Of a stretch of DNA of 64,000 nucleotides, positions 3,114 to 48,641 are shown in pieces. The notes below the pieces were generated by a model. That model was given only the letters and a program-made list of their open reading frames with translations, had not been told where the DNA came from and made no database searches. Source of the DNA: Thermodesulfobacteriota bacterium (GTDB lineage Bacteria; Desulfobacterota; Desulfomonilia; UBA1062); the NCBI GenBank assembly GCA_034716155.1, contig JAYEFR010000079.1:1444-65443 (forward strand). The letters are read 5' to 3'. Position 1 is the first letter of the stretch, and every line of letters begins with the position of its first letter. Both the position numbers and the translations under genes were made by a program.

Positions 3114-4364
3114 TTATTTCTCCTTTATCCTCACACAATCTACTGTCGCTTTTCTCTTTTTTATATTCCTTAGTATGCTGGCAGGAACATCTATCTTTAA
3201 CATTGAACTAGGCTTAACTGCCATTTCTGACTTTCTAATAACAATATCATCCATTTTAACCCTGACAAGCTCATCAGGTTCTTTAACACGCATATAAAAA
3301 GTTACATCTTTTTCTCCGCTGATAAATTGAGGTACTATATATCTTATGTTCTTACCTGGTGTTACCTCTATCTTTCTGCTTGGCATCTTTTCACCTTTTG
3401 CATATGCAGCTGCACTTGCCCCAGCTATTTCACTCTCCCAGCTCACATTGTCTACCAAATCGTGTACGTGAACCACATTCCCTCCAGCAAATATGCCGGG
3501 CACACTAGTTTGCCTTGCCTCATCAACAATAGCCCCCCCCACGAGCGGGTCCAACTCCACCCCTGCCATTAAAGAAAGCTCATTTTCAGGGATAAGACCA
3601 ACAGAAAGTAGAAGCGTATCGCAGTCTATCTCACGTTGAGTCCCTGGTATAGGATTTATATTTTCATCTACCGCAGATATTGTCACTCCCTCTATCCTGG
3701 GAAAACCATGGATGTTGCTAACCGTATGCCGCAAAAACAGTGGGATATCAAAATCGTGTACACATTGAACCTCATTCCTGATAAGGCCACCTATATAAGG
3801 GAGTATCTCAACCACCGCCCCTACCTTAGCTCCTTCTAAAGTCAAACGGCGAGCCATGATCATGCCAATGTCTCCTGAACCTAGAATGATTATCTTTTTC
3901 CCGGGAATAAAGCCCTCCATATTAACAAACCTTTGAGCTTGCCCTGCTGTATAGATTCCAGTTGGCCTACTGCCAGGAATGCCAATATTAAATCTGGTTC
4001 TCTCACGGCAACCCATAGCCAAAACAATTGACTTGGGCTTAAGGCTAAAATAGCCTTTTTTATTACTTGCCACCTTTATTTCACGTTTTTTAGATAGCTC
4101 CAAGATCATAGACTCCACTTCTGCGTCTACCTTCAAATCCATTGCCTTTTCTATAAAGCGATCTCTATACTCCGGGCCAGAGAGATCTTCTCCAAAATAG
4201 AGCAACCCAAAACCATTGTGGACACATTGATCCAGCAATCCTCCTAAGCTCTCAGCACGCTCCAGGACAACTACATTCTCTGCACCTGCTTCCTTTGCCT
4301 TTATGGCAGCAGCCAATCCAGCTGGACCTGCTCCTATAACTGCTACATCAACTTCCTGTTGCAT
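3114..4364 (-). CDS. NAD(P)/FAD-dependent pyridine nucleotide-disulfide family oxidoreductase
   Basis: 416 aa with two Rossmann dinucleotide motifs (VIGAGPAGLAAA, IILGSGDIG). Ends 2 nt after the upstream gene. Confidence 0.8.
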   Translation of the reverse strand: MQQEVDVAVIGAGPAGLAAAIKAKEAGAENVVVLERAESLGGLLDQCVHNGFGLLYFGEDLSGPEYRDRFIEKAMDLKVDAEVESMILELSKKREIKVASNKKGYFSLKPKSIVLAMGCRERTRFNIGIPGSRPTGIYTAGQAQRFVNMEGFIPGKKIIILGSGDIGMIMARRLTLEGAKVGAVVEILPYIGGLIRNEVQCVHDFDIPLFLRHTVSNIHGFPRIEGVTISAVDENINPIPGTQREIDCDTLLLSVGLIPENELSLMAGVELDPLVGGAIVDEARQTSVPGIFAGGNVVHVHDLVDNVSWESEIAGASAAAYAKGEKMPSRKIEVTPGKNIRYIVPQFISGEKDVTFYMRVKEPDELVRVKMDDIVIRKSEMAVKPSSMLKIDVPASILRNIKKRKATVDCVRIKEK

Positions 4365-4366
4365 CT

Positions 4367-5857
4367 TTATTCACCCCCTTTTAACAATTCCTTGTTTTTG
4401 TAAAGCAACTCTCGGGATCCAGGCCCTTTCATTGTTATCTCCTCTTCAGGTATCTCCAACTCTCTGGCTAAAATCTTGATCACCCGAGGACGACAAAAAC
4501 CGGATTGACATCGCCCCATACCAGCTCGAACCCTATGCTTAACGCCATCTACCGTAGTAGCCCCTCTCTTAATAGCCTCAACTATTTCTCCTTCAGTAAC
4601 TGTTTCACATCGACAGACTACATGAGCATATCTGGGGTCTTGAGCGATAAGTTGATCCTTTTCTTTATCAGAAAACTCACTAAAGTCAGGTATGGCTTTG
4701 CGCTTAGGATTGAACTTAGAATTCTCCTTTAATTTGAGACCTTCTTTGACCAATAACTCCACCACCTCCTTGGCTGCTGCAGGAGCAGCACTTATACCAG
4801 GATAACCAATAGAGACATTGATAAATCTCGGCACCCTCTTAGAGGCATCAACCACACACTCATGCCAGCCCAATTCAAAATTCTGCATCATCATAAAACC
4901 AGTAAAGTATTTGATTACATCCGATCCCTTTATATCAGGTAACAACCCTTGAACGTTCGCTAAGGCCTTATCCTGCATCTTTTTTGTGGAAGATAAATCA
5001 CCTTTTCTGGCTTCCAGAAGCGTAATGCCAAACATCAAATTGCCATCTACTGTAGGTAATACAACATTCAGTTCACCCGGCATGAGAGGAATACGATAAA
5101 TAGCATGGTTGATTAATCCACCCAATTTCTTATCACAGATAGCAAGATATCCCTTAACCGGATACAAGACAAAATCATCTGCATTTACCATTGCAGCTAT
5201 CTTATCTATATATATGCCAGCAGCATTGACAATAAACCGGGTTTTGATAGAGCCATTATTTGTTCGTACTTCAAACCCTTCTACACCATGAGATATATCC
5301 TCCACCTCTGTGCCCAGTATCATATGGACTCCATTTTCCGTAGCATTTTCTGCTAAAGCTATGGTTAACTTCATAGGGTCAACAACAGCGGCATGAGGTT
5401 CAAGTAACCCTCCAATAGTATCTCTAGTTATGTTTGGCTCCATTTTACGAAGCGTATCCTGATCGATCCACTCTTGAGGCCCAACCCAATCATATCCCAT
5501 TTTTCTCACTTTCGCCGCCTTTGAATCCATCTTGACAAACTTTGATCGCTGAGCATCATTAGAGAATATCCCTATACCTCCCGATATCTTGAATGGTACT
5601 TCTAGCTCCTGACAAAGAGGCTCCATCATGCGCATGCTATCCCAGACAAGTTTGCTCCGATGATATTCAGGCCTATACTCAAGACAATCCTCTCCTTGAT
5701 TGACCATGCCAACATTAGCCTTGCTACTCCCGCAACAAACATCAACCTCTTTCTCCACTAAGGTAACATCAACTTTATACTTGGATAACTCCCTAGCCGT
5801 TGCCGCACCAAGAACTCCTCCACCAATAATTAATACTTCCGTCTCACATATGCCCAT
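4367..5857 (-). CDS. FAD-dependent oxidoreductase with C-terminal BFD-like [2Fe-2S] domain (GlpA / L-2-hydroxyglutarate oxidase-like)
   Basis: 496 aa. N-terminal IIGGGVLG FAD motif. C-terminal CRCE...C...C BFD-like domain. Confidence 0.8.
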   Translation of the reverse strand: MGICETEVLIIGGGVLGAATARELSKYKVDVTLVEKEVDVCCGSSKANVGMVNQGEDCLEYRPEYHRSKLVWDSMRMMEPLCQELEVPFKISGGIGIFSNDAQRSKFVKMDSKAAKVRKMGYDWVGPQEWIDQDTLRKMEPNITRDTIGGLLEPHAAVVDPMKLTIALAENATENGVHMILGTEVEDISHGVEGFEVRTNNGSIKTRFIVNAAGIYIDKIAAMVNADDFVLYPVKGYLAICDKKLGGLINHAIYRIPLMPGELNVVLPTVDGNLMFGITLLEARKGDLSSTKKMQDKALANVQGLLPDIKGSDVIKYFTGFMMMQNFELGWHECVVDASKRVPRFINVSIGYPGISAAPAAAKEVVELLVKEGLKLKENSKFNPKRKAIPDFSEFSDKEKDQLIAQDPRYAHVVCRCETVTEGEIVEAIKRGATTVDGVKHRVRAGMGRCQSGFCRPRVIKILARELEIPEEEITMKGPGSRELLYKNKELLKGGE

Positions 5858-7450: not shown

Positions 7451-8650
7451 CTAGCGCTTCGCCTGAGAAAAGGCCTTGTCAAGGTCTTCAATAATATCAT
7501 CCACGTCTTCAATCCCGACGGCAAGCCTGAAAAGGGTATCAGTGACCCCCAAGTCATAACGCTCTTGCCTTGAATAGCCATAATAGCTCACAGTTGCAGG
7601 ATGGTTGATGAGGCTCTCTACGCCCCCGAAGCTCGGGGCGATATAGATCATCTCAAGGGAGTCCATAAATCGCTTTGCACTCTCCATGTCCCCTTTCATA
7701 TCAAAGGTCACCACACCGCCTCCGCCTGTCATCTGCTCTTTTGCTATTCTATAATGCCTGTGACTCTCAAGAAAAGGATAGTAAACCTTCTCCACATCAG
7801 GATGCCCCTCAAGGAAGTGAGCCACCTTCAAAGCAGATTCGTTTTGAATCTTCAACCTCAAAGGAAAGGTTTTGAGCCCCCTGAGGAGGAGGTAGCAGCA
7901 GTGGGGATCAATCAATCCACCCATTGATTTGTGGAGATCACGTATCTTTTCGATCAGGTCTCTCTTGCCTATAACAACACCTGCCATGATATCATTATGA
8001 CCTGCAAGGTACTTTGTGGCGCTGTGTATGACAATGTCTATACCAAAATCTAAAGGCGTCTGGTTTAAAGGCGTTGCAAAGGTGCTGTCAATCATGGTCA
8101 TAACGTTATGCCTTTCTGCGATCTCCTCCAATAGAACAAGATCAAAGACGTTCAAATACGGATTAGTGGGGGACTCTGAGAATATGAAGCGTGTGTTCTT
8201 TTTTATGGATGCCTCAAGTATCTCATAATCCCCAAAAGGCACTATCGTGCATTCAATACCAAATCTCTTCAGGTAAGACCTGCAAAACTCTAAAGTTTTC
8301 TTATAGCTGTCGTCTGTCATGACAATATGGTCGCCGGTATGGACGAGAGACAAAATGGTGGTGGTTATAGCCATCATGCCAGAGGAGAACACAACACAGT
8401 CCTCTGCCCCTCCCATATCCGCCAGCCGCCTTTCCGCAATCTTCTCGGTGGGGTTGCCATACCTGCCGTATTCGAAACGCTCTTTGTTGTTTTTGGTATA
8501 GGCCTCTATCTCCTTGCTATCCTTGAAGGTGAAGGTCGATGTCTGTACTATAGGCGTTGTCAGGGAGTCTGCATACTTCTGCCTTTCCTCACCTGCATGT
8601 ACTGCCCTTGTAGCCAATGATTCTGATCCCTTGTTTTTATGTCTGCCCAT
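7451..8650 (-). CDS. Cys/Met-metabolism PLP-dependent enzyme (cystathionine gamma-synthase / gamma-lyase family)
   Basis: 399 aa. PLP-lysine context SATKYLAGHND. Typical MetB/MetC length. Confidence 0.85.
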   Translation of the reverse strand: MGRHKNKGSESLATRAVHAGEERQKYADSLTTPIVQTSTFTFKDSKEIEAYTKNNKERFEYGRYGNPTEKIAERRLADMGGAEDCVVFSSGMMAITTTILSLVHTGDHIVMTDDSYKKTLEFCRSYLKRFGIECTIVPFGDYEILEASIKKNTRFIFSESPTNPYLNVFDLVLLEEIAERHNVMTMIDSTFATPLNQTPLDFGIDIVIHSATKYLAGHNDIMAGVVIGKRDLIEKIRDLHKSMGGLIDPHCCYLLLRGLKTFPLRLKIQNESALKVAHFLEGHPDVEKVYYPFLESHRHYRIAKEQMTGGGGVVTFDMKGDMESAKRFMDSLEMIYIAPSFGGVESLINHPATVSYYGYSRQERYDLGVTDTLFRLAVGIEDVDDIIEDLDKAFSQAKR

Positions 8651-8834
8651 TCTTACACTCCTTTATCGCTTGCAATCACGATTTAAAACTTAAAAAAACA
8701 AAGCCCCTATATTCAGGCATGGTTTTTATGGCTAGTATATTGAGCCTTTTCATGTCAAGGTCAAACATACACAAAAACCAAGATGTCCTGCTCGTGGCCC
8801 AAATCTGGTGAACCCGCAAAAAGTCTAAAAAGGC

Positions 8835-11800
8835 CTATCCTTTTGTAGAGATTGACTGCCCTTGTTTGGTCTTTGCTCCCTGATATGGATTATTCATGAC
8901 CTCCCACATGGAAATGGCCTTTTTATAGAATATATTTGCCATGTTATCATCACCCTTTTTCTTCCAGAAAACTCCCCATGAGGCGAGTGTCCACGCAGTA
9001 TTTGGCAACATATTGAATTTTATGGACAGGCATAAAGCCTTTGAGAGATTATCTCTGGCTTTTTCATATAACCCTTGCTCAACACATACATTACCCATAA
9101 GCCTGTATGCCCATATAAGCTGGTCATTGTTTCCATTTTCAAGATTCCACTCTATGCCCTGACCTGCCATAATCCTGGCATAGGAAAAATCACGAGTATG
9201 AAGACATACCTCCCCAAGGGCATTCAGGGCATACGGCAGGCGATTTGCTATCCCTTTTTTTAAGACAGGGATGGCATACTCAAAAAGCTCTCTTGCCTGA
9301 TCAAGATGGCCTTCCTCTTCTAAGATCCATCCTTTATAGAGTGCAATCAAGGCCTCAACGCCTTCTATATGAAAATTCTTGGAAAGCTCTGTAAATCTAT
9401 CCAGCTCAGCCCTTGCTCCTGTTATATCTCCCATATAGCGTGAATAAAAGTATATGGCGCTTTGAATCCTTATATATGATACCCCTCCGGCCAGCGCTCC
9501 CAGCATCTGCTCTGTCTTAGAACACCTGGTAAAGATCTCTTTTGCCTGCCCAGATCTACCCATAAGGTAATAGATGTAGCCCAACCATATATCAGCAAGC
9601 AGCAAGAGGTCTATATCACTCTCGCCACCATACATATCACGAGTCTTTTTGTACCAGAAGAGGGCGCCGGAAATGTCACCTTTCCATACCATGGCAGTAA
9701 GGGTGGTTATATAATTCACACCAAGGAAAAATTTATGATCATCACTAAAAAGAGGTCTTGCTTCACCCAGATATTCAAGTGCTATGTTTGGCTTGCCCAG
9801 GTATGTGTAGGTATAGGCAACTGCAGTCGATGCAGCAGCTCTCATAAGTGGATCTTCTTTTACCAAATCGGAGATACTGTGAAATGTATCGATGGCCTTT
9901 TCAAACAGGCCTTTTTGAGAGTATGTGTTTATCAGCCTTATCCTGGAAAAGGCCTCATTATCTTTGTCTCCCCTTTCCTTATAGCACTCAGCCAATCTTT
10001 CAAGCGCATGGATTGATTTTTCAGGGTTGAATATCCTCGTGCACGCCCAGATACCCTCCCGTACACCTATAAGTTCTTCATCTCTCATAGGATAATCCGT
10101 ATATTCTTTAAGGCATGCTTCGGCTGTCATATAATGATTTGCCGCCTCAAACAGGGACCCGGATGACTGATTTTTCTTAGCTGCCATAATATTATACATA
10201 ATGGCATTGGGTTGGTCCCCGCTAAGCCCAAAGTGATAGGCAATCTTCTCACACATCTCTTCCTTTTCATCGCCAGAGACATCTTCCAGGGCATGGGCTA
10301 CCTTTTTATGGAGAGATTTTCTATCTCGCTTAAGCATGTTCTCATATGCCACATCCCGGGTCAAGGCATGCCTGAAGGCATATTCTCCGCCTCCTTGTTG
10401 GATAATCCTCAGCAGGCCTAACCCTACAAGGGTGTCTAAATGCCCGTCCATTTCCTCTGGGTTGTGTGTAATTTCTCTAAGCAGATCCTTAGAAAAGATC
10501 CTCCCAATCACCGCCCCCTCGTGCAATATCTCTTTGCACCCCTGATCAAGGCCGTCCAACCTGGATGCAATAACGCCTTTTACGGTAAGCGGGATGCCAT
10601 ATGTCTTGATATTAGCGGCAGCGCCCGCCCCTGTCTTAGAATCAATAATAACACCCTTTTCAATAAGGTAGTTGAGAACCTCTTCTAAATAAAACGGATT
10701 CCCTCCTGCTTTTTCATAGATAAAATTTATCACTTCTTTTTTTACGTTCTGTGTCTCCAGCAAGGATCTTATCATATTCCCTGCCTGACCAAGGGAAAGG
10801 TCCTTAAGCTGAATCTCATGGCCGGGAAGAGAAAACCCGGATTCGCCTCGATAGCTCAAGATATAGAGGCAGGGGTATGAACCCTGATCATCTGATAATA
10901 AAAATCTCAAGAGATCTATTGAGGATTGGTCTGCCCATTGAATATCCTCTATACAGATAACAATCGGGTGATGATGCGCAATCTTAGATATCAATAAAAA
11001 GACCGCCTCAAAAAGCCTGGCCTTTAATACCTCAGGCCCTGTATCTTCTATCCTGGTATCAAGCCCACAAAACACTGCCAGATATGGATATATTGCATCG
11101 GTACCTGTAATATCTTTAATCTTCTGTTTTACCAAAGGAAATTTCTTTTGTATTGATATTTTATCCTTTATACCCAACATCTGATTTATCACCTCAGCAA
11201 CAGGTAAGTAAGGGATATCTTTTGCATAATCAAAACACCTTGCATCATACCAGGTAACAGCTCTGCCCACTAAGGACTTTCTGAACTCTTCTATTAACCT
11301 GCTCTTCCCAACCCCTGGATCACCTCGTATACATATAACAGATCCTATACCCTGCTTTAATCCTGCGCTTTTTTCTTTTAGGATAGCAATCTCTTTTTCA
11401 CGGCCAATCATATCAGAAACAAGACCGCCTTCCCTGTGGATAGCAAGAGGGGTCACTCTTTCGGATATAACCTTGTATACATGAAGGGCATCCTTAATCC
11501 CTTTTACACGCCTCATCCCTATGTCCCCCAGATCAAAATATCTCTTTGCCTCAGGAAAAAGGCTTTCTCCTATCAGGATCTCTCCCGGAGGAGCTATCTG
11601 GGATAATCTGGAGGCTATATTGATGGGGGTCCCAAGCGCCCCCTGAGAGAAAGAACTTGAGCCTGCCTCTTCTATAAGTACTACGCCTGCATTGATACCG
11701 GTATGCATCCTTAAAGGTATATTATAAGTCCGTTCAATATCTTCACTCATGAGATCGACACCCTTATGAATTTCCAAGGCCACACGTATCGCACGGACAG

Positions 11801-21664: not shown

Positions 21665-21930
21665 AAATAGGGATCAGTGAATAGTAAAAGAAGTTTTGGG
21701 TTTTGAGTGTTGAGTTTTGGGTGATTAAGAATAGTCGAGAGTCAAACTTCAGTGAATAGTACCAGAAAAAAAGGCGACCATCCTATCTGTAGGTATTACA
21801 ACGGACGACAGACAACGAACTACTGACAAGTATATGTACAGAACTAAAAAATCATTTATGGCTAAACATGTTTTCACCCCTGGTTGTGTCCGCTAGGCCA
21901 TGATGGTTTTATATAAATGGGGTTAAGTGT
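21661..21930 (+). repeat. Intergenic repeat family, copy A (module 1 + truncated module 2 + module 3)
   Basis: Starts at the stop codon with TGTATGAAAATAG. Module 1 (AGTGAATAGT...GTTTTGGGTTTTGAG...GTGATTAAGAATAGTCGAGAGTCAAACTTCAGTGAATAGTA) is about 95% identical to the reverse complement of 27790-27888. Confidence 0.7.
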
Positions 21931-27311: not shown

Positions 27312-27888
27312 ACTGCCATGGCCTTTTCGGCCACAACGAAGGATGAAAATATATTTAGCCCTGAGCAGTCTTTTTGTTCTGTACTTATACCTGTCAGTAG
27401 TTTTTTTGCTCGTTGTCCGTTGTAAAACCTCCGGATAGGATAATCACCTTCCAATATACCACTGACAACTAACCACGGACAACGGACAAGTATTCTCATA
27501 TAAAGTGTATCCAGATTCCCCCTTTGAAGGGGGCCGGGGGGATGTCATTGCGAGGAGGTTTTTAGGCCGCCGTGGCAATCCCATTGGTTGCAGACACTTT
27601 GAGATTCTTCGCTTCGTGTGGATCCCCGGTTTGTCTTCGCTAAAGCTCGCAATGACAATATGGGTATTATGCAAAGGCCGATGAGGGCAAAAGGTCCCTA
27701 CATTTCCCATAAAACCATTTTTCTTCTATCTTTCGTCTTTAATCTATTGTTTTCTCGACTCTCTTTATCGTCTTGCTCTCTGTTACTATTCACTATTCAA
27801 TATTTTACTATTCACTGAAGTTTGACTCTCGACTATTCTTAATCACCCAAAACCCAAAACTCAAAACCCAAAACTTTTTTACTATTCA
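27302..27888 (-). repeat. Composite intergenic repeat array, copy B (modules 3, 2, internal hairpin element, AGTGAATAGT cluster, module 1), filling the convergent engB/oxidoreductase gap
   Basis: The reverse complement aligns module-by-module with copy A (21661-21930) and copy C (45461-45672). Both flanking stop codons lie inside repeat sequence. Confidence 0.7.
27341..27500 (-). mobile_element. MITE-like module 2 (about 160 nt) with terminal inverted repeats ATGA(A/G)AATA and internal 13-nt inverted repeat CGTTGTCCGTTGT/ACAACGGACAACG
   Basis: About 85-90% identical to 45464-45622 in reverse orientation. The termini are reverse complements of each other. Confidence 0.65.
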
Positions 27889-38636: not shown

Positions 38637-38711
38637 GGGCGGGTAGCTCAGCGGGAGAGCATCGGCCTTACAAGCCGAGGGTCACAGGTTCAAATCCTGT
38701 TCCGCCTACCA
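38637..38711 (+). tRNA. tRNA-Val (anticodon UAC)
   Basis: Cloverleaf by eye: acceptor GGGCGGG, anticodon loop CTTACAA, T-loop GGTTCAAATCC, encoded CCA. Confidence 0.8.
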
Positions 38712-38727
38712 AAGGCTATTTTAGTAA

Positions 38728-38805
38728 GGGGGCGTAGTTAAGTTTGGTTATAACGCCGGCCTGTCACGCCGGAGGTCGAGGGTTCAAGTCCCTTCGCTCC
38801 CGCCA
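38728..38805 (+). tRNA. tRNA-Asp (anticodon GUC)
   Basis: Anticodon stem-loop CCGGC-CTGTCAC-GCCGG. T-loop GGTTCAAGTCC. 3' CCA. Confidence 0.8.
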
Positions 38806-45458: not shown

Positions 45459-45463
45459 ATTTG

Positions 45464-45622
45464 TATGAAAATAGTTGTCAGTTGTCCGTAGTCAGTTGTC
45501 AGTGGTATACTGGAGGGTGATCATCCTATTGGGAGATTTTACAACGGACAACGGGCCACGGACTACTGACAAATATAAGTACAGAACTAAAAGACCACTC
45601 CGGGCTAAATATATTTTCATCC
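45464..45622 (+). mobile_element. MITE-like module 2, copy C (159 nt, terminal inverted repeats ATGAAAATA)
   Basis: Begins 6 nt after the secF stop with TATGAAAATAGTTGTCAG and ends CTAAATATATTTTCATCC. Module 3-like tail to 45672. Confidence 0.65.
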
Positions 45623-45672
45623 TTGATTGTGCCTGCCAGGCCGTAAGGACTATTGATCAAAGGCCGTTTATA

Positions 45673-46332
45673 TTAATCCTCTAATTTAAAGGTGAATGTG
45701 ACCTCTTTTTGTGACGCGACGGCCACACCACTTTTTTTTGCTGGGATAAATTTGGCCTTGTCAAGAGCGCGCATGGCAGCACGATCAAGACGAAGATTCC
45801 CGCTTGAGCTTATAACCCCTATCCTTCCATGGGTACCGTCTTTCAAGACTTCAACAGAAAGCATAACTGAACCCTGTTCACCATGCCTCCTCGAATAAAC
45901 AGGATATCTAGGCATTGGCAGATCGGCAATTACAGCAGGAGTATTTACACCCTTTTCCTCAAGTGCACCATCAGTGCTTTCATGCTTATATGCCTGGTCT
46001 ACCTTGCAAACCCTGGTTTCTGACCTGTGATCCTCATGTTTTACTACCTGAGCTTCATTAAGCGGTATATCCTTTTTTTCTTGGACCTTCCTCTGTACTT
46101 GCCTGTCTTTCGTTTCTCTTTGTTTCTCCAGATTAGATACATTCACACTCTTTTCCGACTGGCCCTTAGAACAGACCTGAGCCTCTACCGGATGGAGAAT
46201 ACTAAGCCTTACAACAGATACACCTTTTTTGTATATCACCTTAGCATCATGATATGAAGGGGATACCAAAAACAGCCCTATATGAATGATGAGTGCGATA
46301 CAAAAGGGCAAGATAAAATCAGAAAACCTCAT
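45673..46332 (-). CDS. tonB: Energy transducer TonB
   Basis: N-terminal TM helix, K/E/Q-rich linker, C-terminal TonB domain (YPVYSRRHGEQGSV...). Confidence 0.75.
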   Translation of the reverse strand: MRFSDFILPFCIALIIHIGLFLVSPSYHDAKVIYKKGVSVVRLSILHPVEAQVCSKGQSEKSVNVSNLEKQRETKDRQVQRKVQEKKDIPLNEAQVVKHEDHRSETRVCKVDQAYKHESTDGALEEKGVNTPAVIADLPMPRYPVYSRRHGEQGSVMLSVEVLKDGTHGRIGVISSSGNLRLDRAAMRALDKAKFIPAKKSGVAVASQKEVTFTFKLED

Positions 46333-46739
46333 TTAGTAGCGTCCCTGCATTCGAATGAGATATCCTTGATCCCTGATCTTCTAAGCAGGTCAAGGACAGA
46401 GATGGCAACCCCGAGATCAGCATGAATATCACCGCTGATAGCTACCTGGATATCGTCCTTTCTACCCATACATTCACTAATCCCGTCAAGGAGTGAATTC
46501 AATGTGACTTGTTCTTTATCCAGATAGATCTCATTGTCCTTTGTTATGGTAATGCTTATATGCTCTATCTTATCTATCCGGGCGGCAGACGCCTCAGGAA
46601 GCTCTACCTTAAACCCTTTGTAAACCGTCATAGACAACATGGCATAGATAAAGAATACAAGGAGGAGGAATGCAATATCAATGAGCGGCACCATTTCTAT
46701 CCGGGCTTTCCTGTTCTCATATCCGCTAGTTAATTGCAT
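46329..46739 (-). CDS. exbD: Biopolymer transport protein ExbD/TolR
   Basis: 136 aa with one TM helix. Overlaps its neighbours by 4 and 10 nt. Confidence 0.8.
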   Translation of the reverse strand: MQLTSGYENRKARIEMVPLIDIAFLLLVFFIYAMLSMTVYKGFKVELPEASAARIDKIEHISITITKDNEIYLDKEQVTLNSLLDGISECMGRKDDIQVAISGDIHADLGVAISVLDLLRRSGIKDISFECRDATK

Positions 46740-47344
46740 CTTTTCATCCCCTTTTTATATGCCACCTCAAAACGGGCTGTGATCTTTTCAAGATGTTTGG
46801 CGGCCTTATCTACCTTTGTTATCAGGTAATTAAAGGGAATCAATGTTATGAGGGCCACGCTAAGTCCTGCAGCTGTAGTAATCAATGCCTGGGCAACACC
46901 ACCGACTACAGCCCTTGGCTCTTCTATGCCTGCCAGACCCAGCAGATTAAAAGATTCGATTATCCCTATCACAGTGCCCAGTATACCTAATAGAGGGGCC
47001 ATGGTAATAATAGTATCCAGTACACCCATGCCTCTTTTCATCTCTTCGATTTCATCCTGAGCTGCAATCTGCATATTCTCTAATGGCCCATCATCTTTAT
47101 GAACAAGGGCTGAAGTAAGAACCCTGACAACAACGTCAGATATACCACTCCCAATAGAGGTGGCACCTTCAAAATTGCCCTCTTCTGTGTGGCGTAAGAT
47201 CTCTTCAACAAGCATACTTGTTCTTCTTTTATCTTGCCTCCACCAGAAGATAGCCCTCTCGATAATTACGGTAACCGATACCAGCGAACACACAAGAAGC
47301 GGCCACATTATAGGCCCACCTTTTACAAACAGATCATATACCAT
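46730..47344 (-). CDS. exbB: MotA/TolQ/ExbB proton channel family protein
   Basis: 204 aa with three TM helices. GGGAGGTG ribosome-binding site before the ATG. Confidence 0.8.
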   Translation of the reverse strand: MVYDLFVKGGPIMWPLLVCSLVSVTVIIERAIFWWRQDKRRTSMLVEEILRHTEEGNFEGATSIGSGISDVVVRVLTSALVHKDDGPLENMQIAAQDEIEEMKRGMGVLDTIITMAPLLGILGTVIGIIESFNLLGLAGIEEPRAVVGGVAQALITTAAGLSVALITLIPFNYLITKVDKAAKHLEKITARFEVAYKKGMKRCN

Positions 47345-47453
47345 TGAATCACCTCCCTATATAACCCTACAGAGTGACCTTTATGCCAGAAAGAGCAAAG
47401 ACACCTGGCATAACCTCATGTATTTTCATAAGCCCTTTCTCGCCTTGCCAAAC

Positions 47454-47490
47454 AAAAAAATCCCCGGATCTAAATTAATAGATCCGGGGA
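47454..47490 (-). terminator. Intrinsic terminator, probable expression platform of the cobalamin riboswitch
   Basis: Minus strand UCCCCGGAUC-uauuaauuua-GAUCCGGGGA followed by UUUUUUU. About 110 nt upstream of the exbB start. Confidence 0.65.
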
Positions 47491-47549
47491 TGCCGTTTTT
47501 CATCCTCTATTAGCACTGACCCTGGTCCGCGGAGTCAGAAATTCAATAT

Positions 47550-47712
47550 CTTTATGGGCAGGTCTTCCGGCTTCCGGATCATCCTACTCACCGCGCCTTC
47601 CCACCTTTTCGGGCAGTGGCATTTAAGCGGCCTTCGTCCCCGGTTACAGCGGCGGGCCCGCGACGGACTTGCACCGTCTTCCCCTACGCCCTCACGGACT
47701 ACCCATAACCAA
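47550..47712 (-). promoter_or_regulatory. Cobalamin (B12) riboswitch aptamer
   Basis: The minus-strand RNA ...GGGGAAGACGGUGCAAGUCCGUCGCGGGCCCGCCGCUGUAACCGGGGACGAAGGCC...AAUGCCACUGCCCGAAAAGGUGGGAAGGCGCGG...CCGGAAGACCUGCCC matches the GGGAA-nCGGUG-AA-UCCG...CCCGC-GCUGUAA core, the B12 box GCCACUG/GGGAAGGC, and the 3' CCGGAAGACCUGCC pairing element. Confidence 0.8.
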
Positions 47713-47833
47713 ATCCCAAGGTATAACAAAGAGATATCAGGCGTCAACAATAAATCACCACAATTGTTTCCACAAAAATACAACCACAAAAAATTTTAAT
47801 CCCAAGAGATGAAAAAATTTTGCATATTTATAG

Positions 47834-47909: not shown

Positions 47910-48641
47910 ATGAAAAGATTGTTTGCGGGGGTTTTATTTTGTGCGGTAATATTTGTTTTTCCTTTGAGCCTATTGGCCCAGGATTATCTGACACAGGCAG
48001 ATAACCTCTATGATCAGGGAGGGATAGAAAACATCCTGAAATCCATCCCACTTTATGTCAAGGCGGTTCAGGCAAGCCCAAATAGCTATGAAGCCAATTG
48101 GAAGTGTGCGAGGGCGTATAGAGAGTATGGCGATAAGGCCAAGACACAAAATATAGAGGGTTGGAAGGAGATCTGCAAAAAATATGGCAAAGAAGGCATA
48201 AATTACGGCGAAAAGGCCATAGAATTGGAGCCAAACAAGGTCGAAGGGAATTTCTGGTACGGATGTTCTGTAGGGGTTTACGCTGATGGGGTCAGCATCC
48301 TTACAGCTTTAAAGGAAGGATTGAAAGGAAAGACTCAAGAGGGCTTTGAGAAGGCATATGAAGCCGACAAGATGTATCAAGATGGCGGCCCCATGATTGC
48401 CCTTGGCCGTTTCTGGGCTGTACTCCCATGGCCCATGAAGAAGAATAAAAAGGCGCTTAAGTATCTTAGCGAAGCATTGAAATCTTTTCCGGATAACCCT
48501 GAAATTCAGGTTTATCTTGCCGAGGTTTTATTAGATACAGGGAAAAAGGATGAGGCAAAGCCCTTACTCGAGAAGGCGGCAAAGAGCGATGACAAGTATT
48601 ACAGCAACCAGGCAAAGGATATGCTGGCCGAGATGAAATAA
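47910..48641 (+). CDS. Secreted helical-repeat (TPR-like) protein of unknown function
   Basis: Signal peptide MKRLFAGVLFCAVIFVFPLSLLAQD. Ala/Lys/Glu-rich helical repeats. Confidence 0.5.
   Translation: MKRLFAGVLFCAVIFVFPLSLLAQDYLTQADNLYDQGGIENILKSIPLYVKAVQASPNSYEANWKCARAYREYGDKAKTQNIEGWKEICKKYGKEGINYGEKAIELEPNKVEGNFWYGCSVGVYADGVSILTALKEGLKGKTQEGFEKAYEADKMYQDGGPMIALGRFWAVLPWPMKKNKKALKYLSEALKSFPDNPEIQVYLAEVLLDTGKKDEAKPLLEKAAKSDDKYYSNQAKDMLAEMK

Follow-up and report, generated by a model that had tools for sequence, protein, structure and literature searches.

Multiple sets of TonB and ExbBD, with TonB paralogues dedicated to particular substrates, occur in Vibrio, Pseudomonas, Xanthomonas, and Anabaena. 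The subject of this report is an exbB-exbD-tonB operon that stands behind a cobalamin riboswitch on the minus strand of a 64,000-nt stretch (hereafter, the window) of contig JAYEFR010000079.1 (assembly GCA_034716155.1) from a Thermodesulfobacteriota bacterium. Like the dedicated TonB paralogues, this energiser is genetically tied to, and co-regulated with, a single nutrient pathway; however, its predicted regulator is a metabolite-sensing RNA instead of Fur or another protein, and its corrinoid specificity is suggested by operon context. The RF00174 leader of btuB in E. coli and Salmonella resembles that of the window in its full-length aptamer, B12 box and core, its position in the 5' leader of B12-uptake genes and its expected OFF response. 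Control of E. coli btuB acts mainly on translation (PMC11162775), whereas the platform in the window is an intrinsic terminator and the first downstream gene is exbB, not btuB. In the predicted B12 uptake system of Caldithrix abyssi, a riboswitch precedes the receptor and binding-protein genes, while the Ton genes are unlinked and lie outside riboswitch control (PMC5317091), and the same is true of the Anabaena alr4027-btuB2-btuFCD operon and its unlinked TonB3 (PMC10878165). Both systems share with the window a cobalamin riboswitch acting on B12 transport and an uptake that depends on TonB/ExbBD, but the arrangement in the window is reversed, with the Ton genes under the riboswitch. Riboswitch-controlled btuB and btuFCD operons are already known, and the switch considered here is expected to be a textbook OFF switch of ordinary mechanism. 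Our full-text literature search, with the B12-regulon comparisons of 2003 outside its scope, returned no description of a cobalamin riboswitch with exbBD-tonB as its only cargo and no explicit treatment of exbBD-tonB as a common part of riboswitch-controlled btu operons.

Comparison with related loci (designated by L numbers) showed that the receptor-less operon of the window is a btuB deletion derivative of a canonical riboswitch-btuB-exbB-exbD-tonB operon, since an intact receptor gene occupies the same site in its closest relatives and the 3' stub of that gene persists in the window. These relatives, L090 and L091, come from two JGI metagenomes, share synteny with the window, encode an ExbB 95% identical to its own and are 95.6-95.9% identical to it in nucleotide sequence across EamA, TPR, exbB, secF, and secD; for the same genes the identities are 85-93% with L081 and 82-88% with L083. 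In L090, the riboswitch (7649-7830; RF00174, 109.2 bits) and the same terminator are followed by a receptor gene (7942-9978) and, 22 nt later, by exbB (beginning at 10001). The encoded receptor (678 amino acids, Plug and barrel) has TIGR01779, TonB-B12, as its best NCBIfam match (363 bits). When the window was aligned to L090 by BLAST, similarity broke at 47456, in the T-tract of the terminator, and resumed at 47388 (equivalent to L090:9957), 22 nt short of the stop codon of the receptor gene. The stub in the window, GGCATAAAGGTCACTCTGTAG (..G I K V T L *), matches the C-terminus of the L090 receptor, has its stop codon at 47369-47367 and is followed by the L090 intergenic sequence, including the ribosome-binding site GGGAGGTG, which in L090 is identical and lies inside the 22-nt gap between btuB and exbB. 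Further upstream the stub has diverged, with a recognisable but weak similarity to the 3' end of the receptor gene. In place of about 2.0 kb, the deletion has left about 67 nt that cannot be aligned, together with the 3' stub. BLAST found no homology between the 115-nt spacer and the leaders of distant relatives outside the clade, and the origin of the spacer is explained only through the comparison with L090/L091. The stub segment (47367-47429) also contains a conserved hairpin, ATGCCAG-N13-CTGGCAT, and in L083 the reading frame that matches its mini-ORF (open reading frame) continues into exbB.

The receptor-less layout is shared by L081/L082 (ExbB 94% identical) and L083/L084 (78%), in which the genes are arranged as in the window, i.e., PilZ-EamA-TPR, riboswitch-exbB-exbD-tonB, and secF-secD; both L081 and L083 have this stub too. 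An earlier note on this DNA, made from the sequence alone, had pointed out that the regulated cargo comprises only exbB, exbD, and tonB, without a receptor gene in the operon, and this applies to the entire 64-kb window: no TonB-dependent receptor is encoded there, and the riboswitch operon retains only the 3' stub of one. The only three ORFs of at least 600 amino acids encode a cyclase/AAA/TPR protein, a 707-residue protein with a weak VWA match, and Lon, the last identified through the annotation of the syntenic L081. A set of 5.8 billion proteins, which holds the ExbB of the window's metagenome-assembled genome (MAG) and presumably its other predicted proteins, contains no relative of the L090 receptor above 63% identity. 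This argues that the receptor gene was lost and not moved. Relocation of the same gene is therefore not supported, although a more distant BtuB paralogue could be present.

The cobalamin riboswitch itself is genuine, an ordinary member of RF00174 with a terminator as its expression platform. An Rfam scan of the whole window returned a match to RF00174 of 107.3 bits (gathering score, 31.5; E 7e-26) that covers model positions 1-189 of 189. The earlier note had placed a B12 aptamer at about 47550-47712 on the minus strand, and its coordinates proved right to within about 10 nt. At gathering thresholds this is the sole riboswitch of the window, the two remaining Rfam matches being tRNAs (38637-38802). 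The alignment to the model shows the GGGAA..CGGUG core, of which GGUG belongs to the T-loop region, and the GCCACUG B12 box, both of them invariant across 9 orthologues, and 20 of the 44 consensus pairs in nine orthologous aptamers carry double changes that keep the pairing. Between the window and L083, both of which carry the deletion, P1, P2, and the B12-box stem are altered on both sides with pairing kept, indicating continued selection on the RNA. The element is predicted to respond to a corrinoid and to act as an OFF switch. Immediately upstream of the aptamer lies a promoter-like element that is kept as TTGAC(G/A)...TATA(C/T)C in L081, L083, and L090; a strict promoter-consensus scan did not report it in the window.

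Downstream of the aptamer and upstream of exbB, a G+C-rich hairpin (arms ATCCCCGGATCTA and TAGATCCGGGGAT, 47491-47460, with seven G-C pairs in its stem) is followed by a T-run extending to 47454, much as the earlier note had proposed for 47454-47490. The minimum-free-energy fold of the leader likewise contains the hairpin. Sites that resemble terminators are no more frequent in this region than chance would give (3 found; 2.1 +/- 1.7 in shuffled sequences), and this one is set apart by how strong it is, where it lies, and how well it is conserved: its stem is identical in L090 and differs by one G-U wobble in L081. Single-sequence and consensus folds place a further hairpin between aptamer and terminator (Table 1). 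Its loop, CCGCGGA, is complementary to CCCGC(C) in the L5 region, and CGCGGA is invariant in four clade members. Ligand binding is coupled to the expression platform of known cobalamin riboswitches by a kissing loop between L5 and L13. The hairpin is thus a candidate P13/L13 regulatory hairpin, for which a kissing-loop role may be inferred. In a transcript ending before the 3' arm of the terminator, the 5' arm is predicted to pair with UAAUAGAGGAUG directly upstream; in the consensus fold, the same segment pairs instead with the 5' flank of P1 in a long-range helix. These alternative folds suggest a hypothetical model in which antiterminator, anti-antiterminator, and terminator all compete with one another.

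Behind the terminator, the earlier note had read exbB (with GGGAGGTG as its ribosome-binding site), exbD, and tonB, and Pfam matches confirmed all three genes between 47344 and 45673. All three domains score above their cutoffs, and the start and stop codons overlap, making a single operon bordered by a divergent gene for a TPR protein (47910-48641) and by the convergent secF-secD. TonB has an N-terminal membrane anchor, a charged linker, and the TonB_C domain. The equivalog models score far below their cutoffs (TIGR02797 exbB, 55 bits against 206; TIGR02803/4 exbD, 38-48 against 123-153), and the TolQ and TolR models score slightly above those for ExbB and ExbD while also remaining far below cutoff. 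Assignment to the Ton and not the Tol system follows from the TonB_C gene and from the operon context in relatives. A Tol-Pal identity was rejected, since there is no tolA, tolB, or pal, the operons of relatives are btu operons and the TolQ/TolR scores are below cutoff.

The exbB, exbD, and tonB genes are under purifying selection in the lineages that carry the deletion. The ratio of nonsynonymous to synonymous substitution rates (dN/dS) for the window against L081 and against L083 was 0.13 and 0.26 for exbB, 0.11 and 0.10 for exbD, and 0.28 and 0.36 for tonB, with dS in these comparisons reaching 0.62 and each gene keeping its length across the lineages.

To place these genes in their family, we aligned 34 ExbB relatives and surveyed 80 species-representative loci that encode the closest ExbB homologues (47-61% identity), using Rfam scans, an nhmmer profile built from Rfam-confirmed aptamers (E<1e-6), and phmmer-based gene maps. 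The ExbB of the window matches a protein from an NCBI Thermodesulfobacteriota MAG at 100% identity and ExbB encoded in riboswitch-btuB operons at 48-61%. Genes for btuB or btuFCD lie on the same strand at 57 of the 80 loci, and nhmmer found a cobalamin aptamer upstream at 35, of which 14 have tandem aptamers; when only the 57 loci whose upstream sequence reaches 3 kb or more are considered, the counts are 48 for btu genes and 31 for an aptamer. Aptamers were confirmed by Rfam at L003-L011, L014, L015, L021, L035, L047, L048, L050, L053, L064, L078, L080, L087, L088, and L090. Three arrangements recur: riboswitch(es)-btuB-exbB-exbD-tonB-btuF-btuD-btuC, riboswitch(es)-btuB-btuFCD-exbB-exbD-tonB, and riboswitch-btuFCD-exbB-exbD-tonB. 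At L004, for example, two tandem aptamers are followed by genes with the Pfam order Plug+TonB_dep_Rec, MotA_ExbB, ExbD, TonB_C, Peripla_BP_2, ABC_tran, and FecCD, i.e., TonB-dependent receptor-ExbB-ExbD-TonB-BtuF-BtuD-BtuC. For the receptors of these operons, TIGR01779 (TonB-dependent vitamin B12 receptor) is by far the best-scoring model, although the scores stay below its equivalog cutoff, and JGI annotates their homologues as 'vitamin B12 transporter'.

In a neighbour-joining tree of ExbB, the clade of the window is nested inside the riboswitch-btuB-exbB lineages, and the deeper relatives (L087, L088, L001, L003, L005, and others) all have the order riboswitch-btuB-exbB. Together with the linkage to btu genes at 57 of 80 loci, this nesting makes the Ton genes of the window orthologous to those linked to btuB or btuFCD. 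In the operons with btuB directly before exbB (L003-L011, L014, L035, L074, L087, L088, and L090/L091, some continuing into btuF-btuD-btuC), ExbB, ExbD, and TonB are orthologous at 48-96% identity, as are the aptamer and terminator, and L090/L091 also have the same flanking genes; in contrast, the window lacks the receptor gene, apart from its 3' stub, lacks btuFDC downstream and has a single aptamer, unlike the many relatives with a tandem pair. It is well supported by context that the ExbB of the window belongs to a multi-phylum family of Ton paralogues dedicated to corrinoid uptake, with members in Thermodesulfobacteriota, anammox Planctomycetota (Brocadiaceae), Acidobacteria, Lentisphaerota, and Kiritimatiellota. 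The statement in the earlier note that B12 riboswitches normally precede btuB or btuFCD understates how often exbBD-tonB share such operons.

We propose, and consider likely, that the element is a terminator-type OFF riboswitch that formerly governed btuB-exbB-exbD-tonB and came to abut exbB when btuB was deleted. In the original operon, an outer-membrane corrinoid receptor would have been encoded together with a Ton energiser dedicated to it. In the lineage of the window, about 2 kb containing the btuB-like receptor gene would then have been deleted, sparing the promoter, the aptamer, the terminator, a diverged stub with the last codons of the receptor, and the ribosome-binding site of exbB. 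When a corrinoid (adenosylcobalamin or another) is abundant, it would bind the nascent leader, the terminator would form, and transcription would stop before exbB. When corrinoid is scarce, read-through would allow synthesis of the ExbB/ExbD/TonB complex, which would couple the proton-motive force to TonB-dependent import across the outer membrane. The energiser is probably still used and still repressed by B12, since the aptamer shows compensatory changes and the genes show purifying selection in lineages with the deletion. Selection on exbBD-tonB without a linked btuB argues, in turn, that some partner receptor exists, and it is plausible that one is encoded elsewhere. Indeed, btuFCD is absent from the locus even in the btuB-containing L090/L091, suggesting that the genes of the B12-uptake regulon lie scattered in this clade and making a second, more distant receptor plausible. 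That a corrinoid-dedicated, B12-repressed module has been kept in several lineages to energise one or more unlinked corrinoid receptors is an extension of this proposal that we advance tentatively, at somewhat short of an even chance.

Several observations weigh against this proposal. No partner receptor is encoded in the window, and the protein set holds no close copy of the deleted one. The deletion allele is common to the more distant L081 and L083 while the closest relatives keep btuB, a distribution which implies either that the presence or absence of btuB is an old polymorphism or that the locus has recombined. Similarities among the tonB genes are discordant with those of the flanking genes and suggest possible recombination within the operon; tonB of the window (45673-46332) is 88.0% identical to that of L083 and 85.9% identical to that of L081, and L083 and L090 share 91.5%. 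No covariation was found for any specific antiterminator, the candidate pairs all being invariant among the four sequences of the clade. Ligand binding, termination, and the start of transcription are all inferred. Lastly, the L083 terminator has two mismatches, and in the window a sigma-70-like match (TTGGCA-18-GAAAAT, 47451-47422, 9 of 12 positions) lies downstream of the terminator, from where expression could bypass the riboswitch.

The earlier note had read the locus as a purpose-built, stand-alone TonB operon, repressed by B12, that never had a receptor and energises a corrinoid receptor encoded elsewhere. Its dedication to B12 is upheld by the operon context of the family; the purpose-built layout is contradicted by the receptor stub and by the intact gene in L090/L091. 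In favour of the note's reading, the cargo is confined to exbB-exbD-tonB in the window, L081, and L083, these genes are under purifying selection, and btuFCD is absent from the locus in both the window and L090, as though the B12 regulon were already dispersed in the clade. An independent riboswitch-terminator-exbB junction is also present at L047, where the aptamer (116.8 bits) is followed by a terminator (3791-3821; ATCCCCGG...CCGGGGAT) similar to that of the window and by exbB starting at 3874, and whose ExbB falls in another part of the tree. (L077 and L068, tried as further riboswitch-exbB junctions, gave partial nhmmer matches and nothing in Rfam even at E<=0.1, and were not counted.) However, a 3' stub of the receptor gene remains in the window, the closest relative has an intact receptor at exactly that position, all deeper relatives have the order riboswitch-btuB-exbB, and the unlinked receptor is only postulated. 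These points largely refute the claim that the operon never contained a receptor, and we regard the purpose-built account as improbable.

We likewise give little credence to the possibility that the aptamer and terminator became irrelevant after the deletion, a promoter within the 115-nt spacer now driving constitutive expression of exbB-exbD-tonB. The sigma-70-like match and the weakened L083 terminator would fit such a relic. However, 6.2 +/- 2.2 matches as good as 9 of 12 are expected by chance in the region, the -35 element is TTTTCA in L081, and a 190-nt insertion splits the hexamers in L083, whose aptamer stems have been kept by compensatory changes. A spacer promoter was therefore rejected as the main route of expression, being a single weak consensus match that is not conserved.

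It is very unlikely that the Ton genes have lost their function without btuB and are decaying into pseudogenes. Although the window encodes no receptor and the protein database holds no close copy of the lost one, the three ORFs are intact and of equal length in three deletion lineages that differ by up to 17% in nucleotide sequence, dN/dS is 0.10-0.36, and the ribosome-binding site and overlapping start and stop codons are preserved. Finally, all of the sequences derive from metagenome assemblies, but loss of the receptor gene through mis-assembly is scarcely credible, since the identical junction occurs in independent assemblies of different samples (the window's NCBI MAG, Logan SRR26901925 and SRR7066492, ENA ERZ23499165 and ERZ23499525, and GCA_021162585.1), L081, L082, L083, and L084 included, and the stub has diverged among them, which mis-assembly would not bring about.

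The locus seems especially prone to the insertion of small mobile repeats. As the earlier note had observed, a copy of a repeat resembling a miniature inverted-repeat transposable element (MITE) sits 3' of tonB. It matches 27332-27504 (85% over 173 nt) and 21773-21899 (78% over 127 nt) in the window, and its central part is absent from the corresponding site of L081. An insertion of about 190 nt at L083:2664-2850, in the interval between terminator and stub, has short matches to 27676-27702 and 27332-27350 of the window, and about 155 nt are inserted upstream of the promoter in L081 (about 9400-9555). Just 3' of tonB, L083 carries a group II intron domain (4924-5026, minus strand; RF00029, 53.8 bits) that has no equivalent in the window.

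Elsewhere in the family, tandem aptamers ahead of btuB stand about 100-150 nt apart, and the clade of the window and L090 has one only. The btuB-exbBD-tonB-btuFDC loci of Kiritimatiellae give no RF00174 match; they show matches to RF01482 (AdoCbl) of 39-43 bits, under the gathering score of 50, and may represent a divergent cobalamin aptamer lineage that is missed at gathering thresholds. At L085 (156-7712), a relative of 64% identity, genes for DUF2162, MotA_ExbB, DUF2149, and a 1326-residue CobN-like chelatase subunit precede exbB-exbD-tonB in the same orientation, and the 8.5-kb contig yielded no cobalamin aptamer. In L064, from a Desulfobacterales MAG, a thiamine pyrophosphate (TPP) riboswitch (11360-11473, plus strand; 66.1 bits) follows the riboswitch-btuFCD-exbBD-tonB operon at a distance of about 1.5 kb. 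Coordinates of the features are collected in Table 1.

Table 1. Features of the riboswitch-exbB-exbD-tonB locus of the window and of related loci. Positions without a locus prefix are those of the window.
Feature	Position	Strand	Basis and details
Promoter-like element (putative)	47720..47747	-	Read from sequence; TTGACG (47747-47742), 16-nt spacer, TATACC (47725-47720)
Cobalamin riboswitch aptamer, RF00174	47540..47721	-	Rfam match and compensatory changes; P6 extension; B12 box GCCACTG
Candidate P13/L13 hairpin, aptamer-terminator interval	47516..47538	-	CUGAC-N13-GUCAG; single-sequence and consensus folds
Intrinsic terminator (expression platform)	47454..47491	-	13-bp stem, 6-nt loop, T7
btuB-like receptor remnant	47367..47429	-	20-codon mini-ORF ...GIKVTL*; last 22 nt (47388-47367) near-identical to L090
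exbB ribosome-binding site	47350..47357	-	Read from sequence; GGGAGGTG
exbB (204 amino acids)	46730..47344	-	PF01618 MotA_ExbB, 94.7 bits
exbD (136 amino acids)	46329..46739	-	PF02472 ExbD, 86.7 bits; 10-nt overlap with exbB
tonB (219 amino acids)	45673..46332	-	PF03544 TonB_C, 65.7 bits; TIGR01352, 61.4 bits; ATGA overlap with exbD
MITE-like repeat copy	45460..45631		Between tonB and convergent secF; 37-nt inverted repeat inside
Tandem aptamers	L004:5499-5982		
Tandem aptamers	L005:1804-2307		
Tandem aptamers	L006:3718-4275		
Tandem aptamers	L010:2368-2859		
Tandem aptamers	L011:5430-5916		
Tandem aptamers	L015:1332-1844		
Tandem aptamers	L035:5421-5919		
Tandem aptamers	L087:467-985		
Sub-threshold RF01482 match	L012:5755-5907	+	Exactly upstream of transport genes
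Sub-threshold RF01482 match	L012:5340-5493	-	Exactly upstream of transport genes
Sub-threshold RF01482 match	L018:5672-5817	+	Exactly upstream of transport genes

Our understanding of how riboswitches or Ton systems function is unchanged by these results. They do illustrate that an odd riboswitch cargo can mislead, in that what seems a special design is the deletion scar of a canonical operon. A dedicated ExbB-ExbD-TonB is common, across several phyla, in riboswitch-controlled corrinoid operons, which should aid the annotation of genes now labelled 'MotA/TolQ/ExbB family' in those phyla. The btuB-containing and btuB-lacking alleles of close relatives, with the energiser kept in both, offer a natural system for the study of specificity between TonB and its receptors, as well as of the gain and loss of B12 scavenging in sediment anaerobes. 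If the energiser does serve an unlinked receptor, the locus and its btuB-containing sister strains would make up a natural btuB+/- polymorphism, and would raise the question of whether B12 uptake is also controlled through separate regulation of the amount of energiser.

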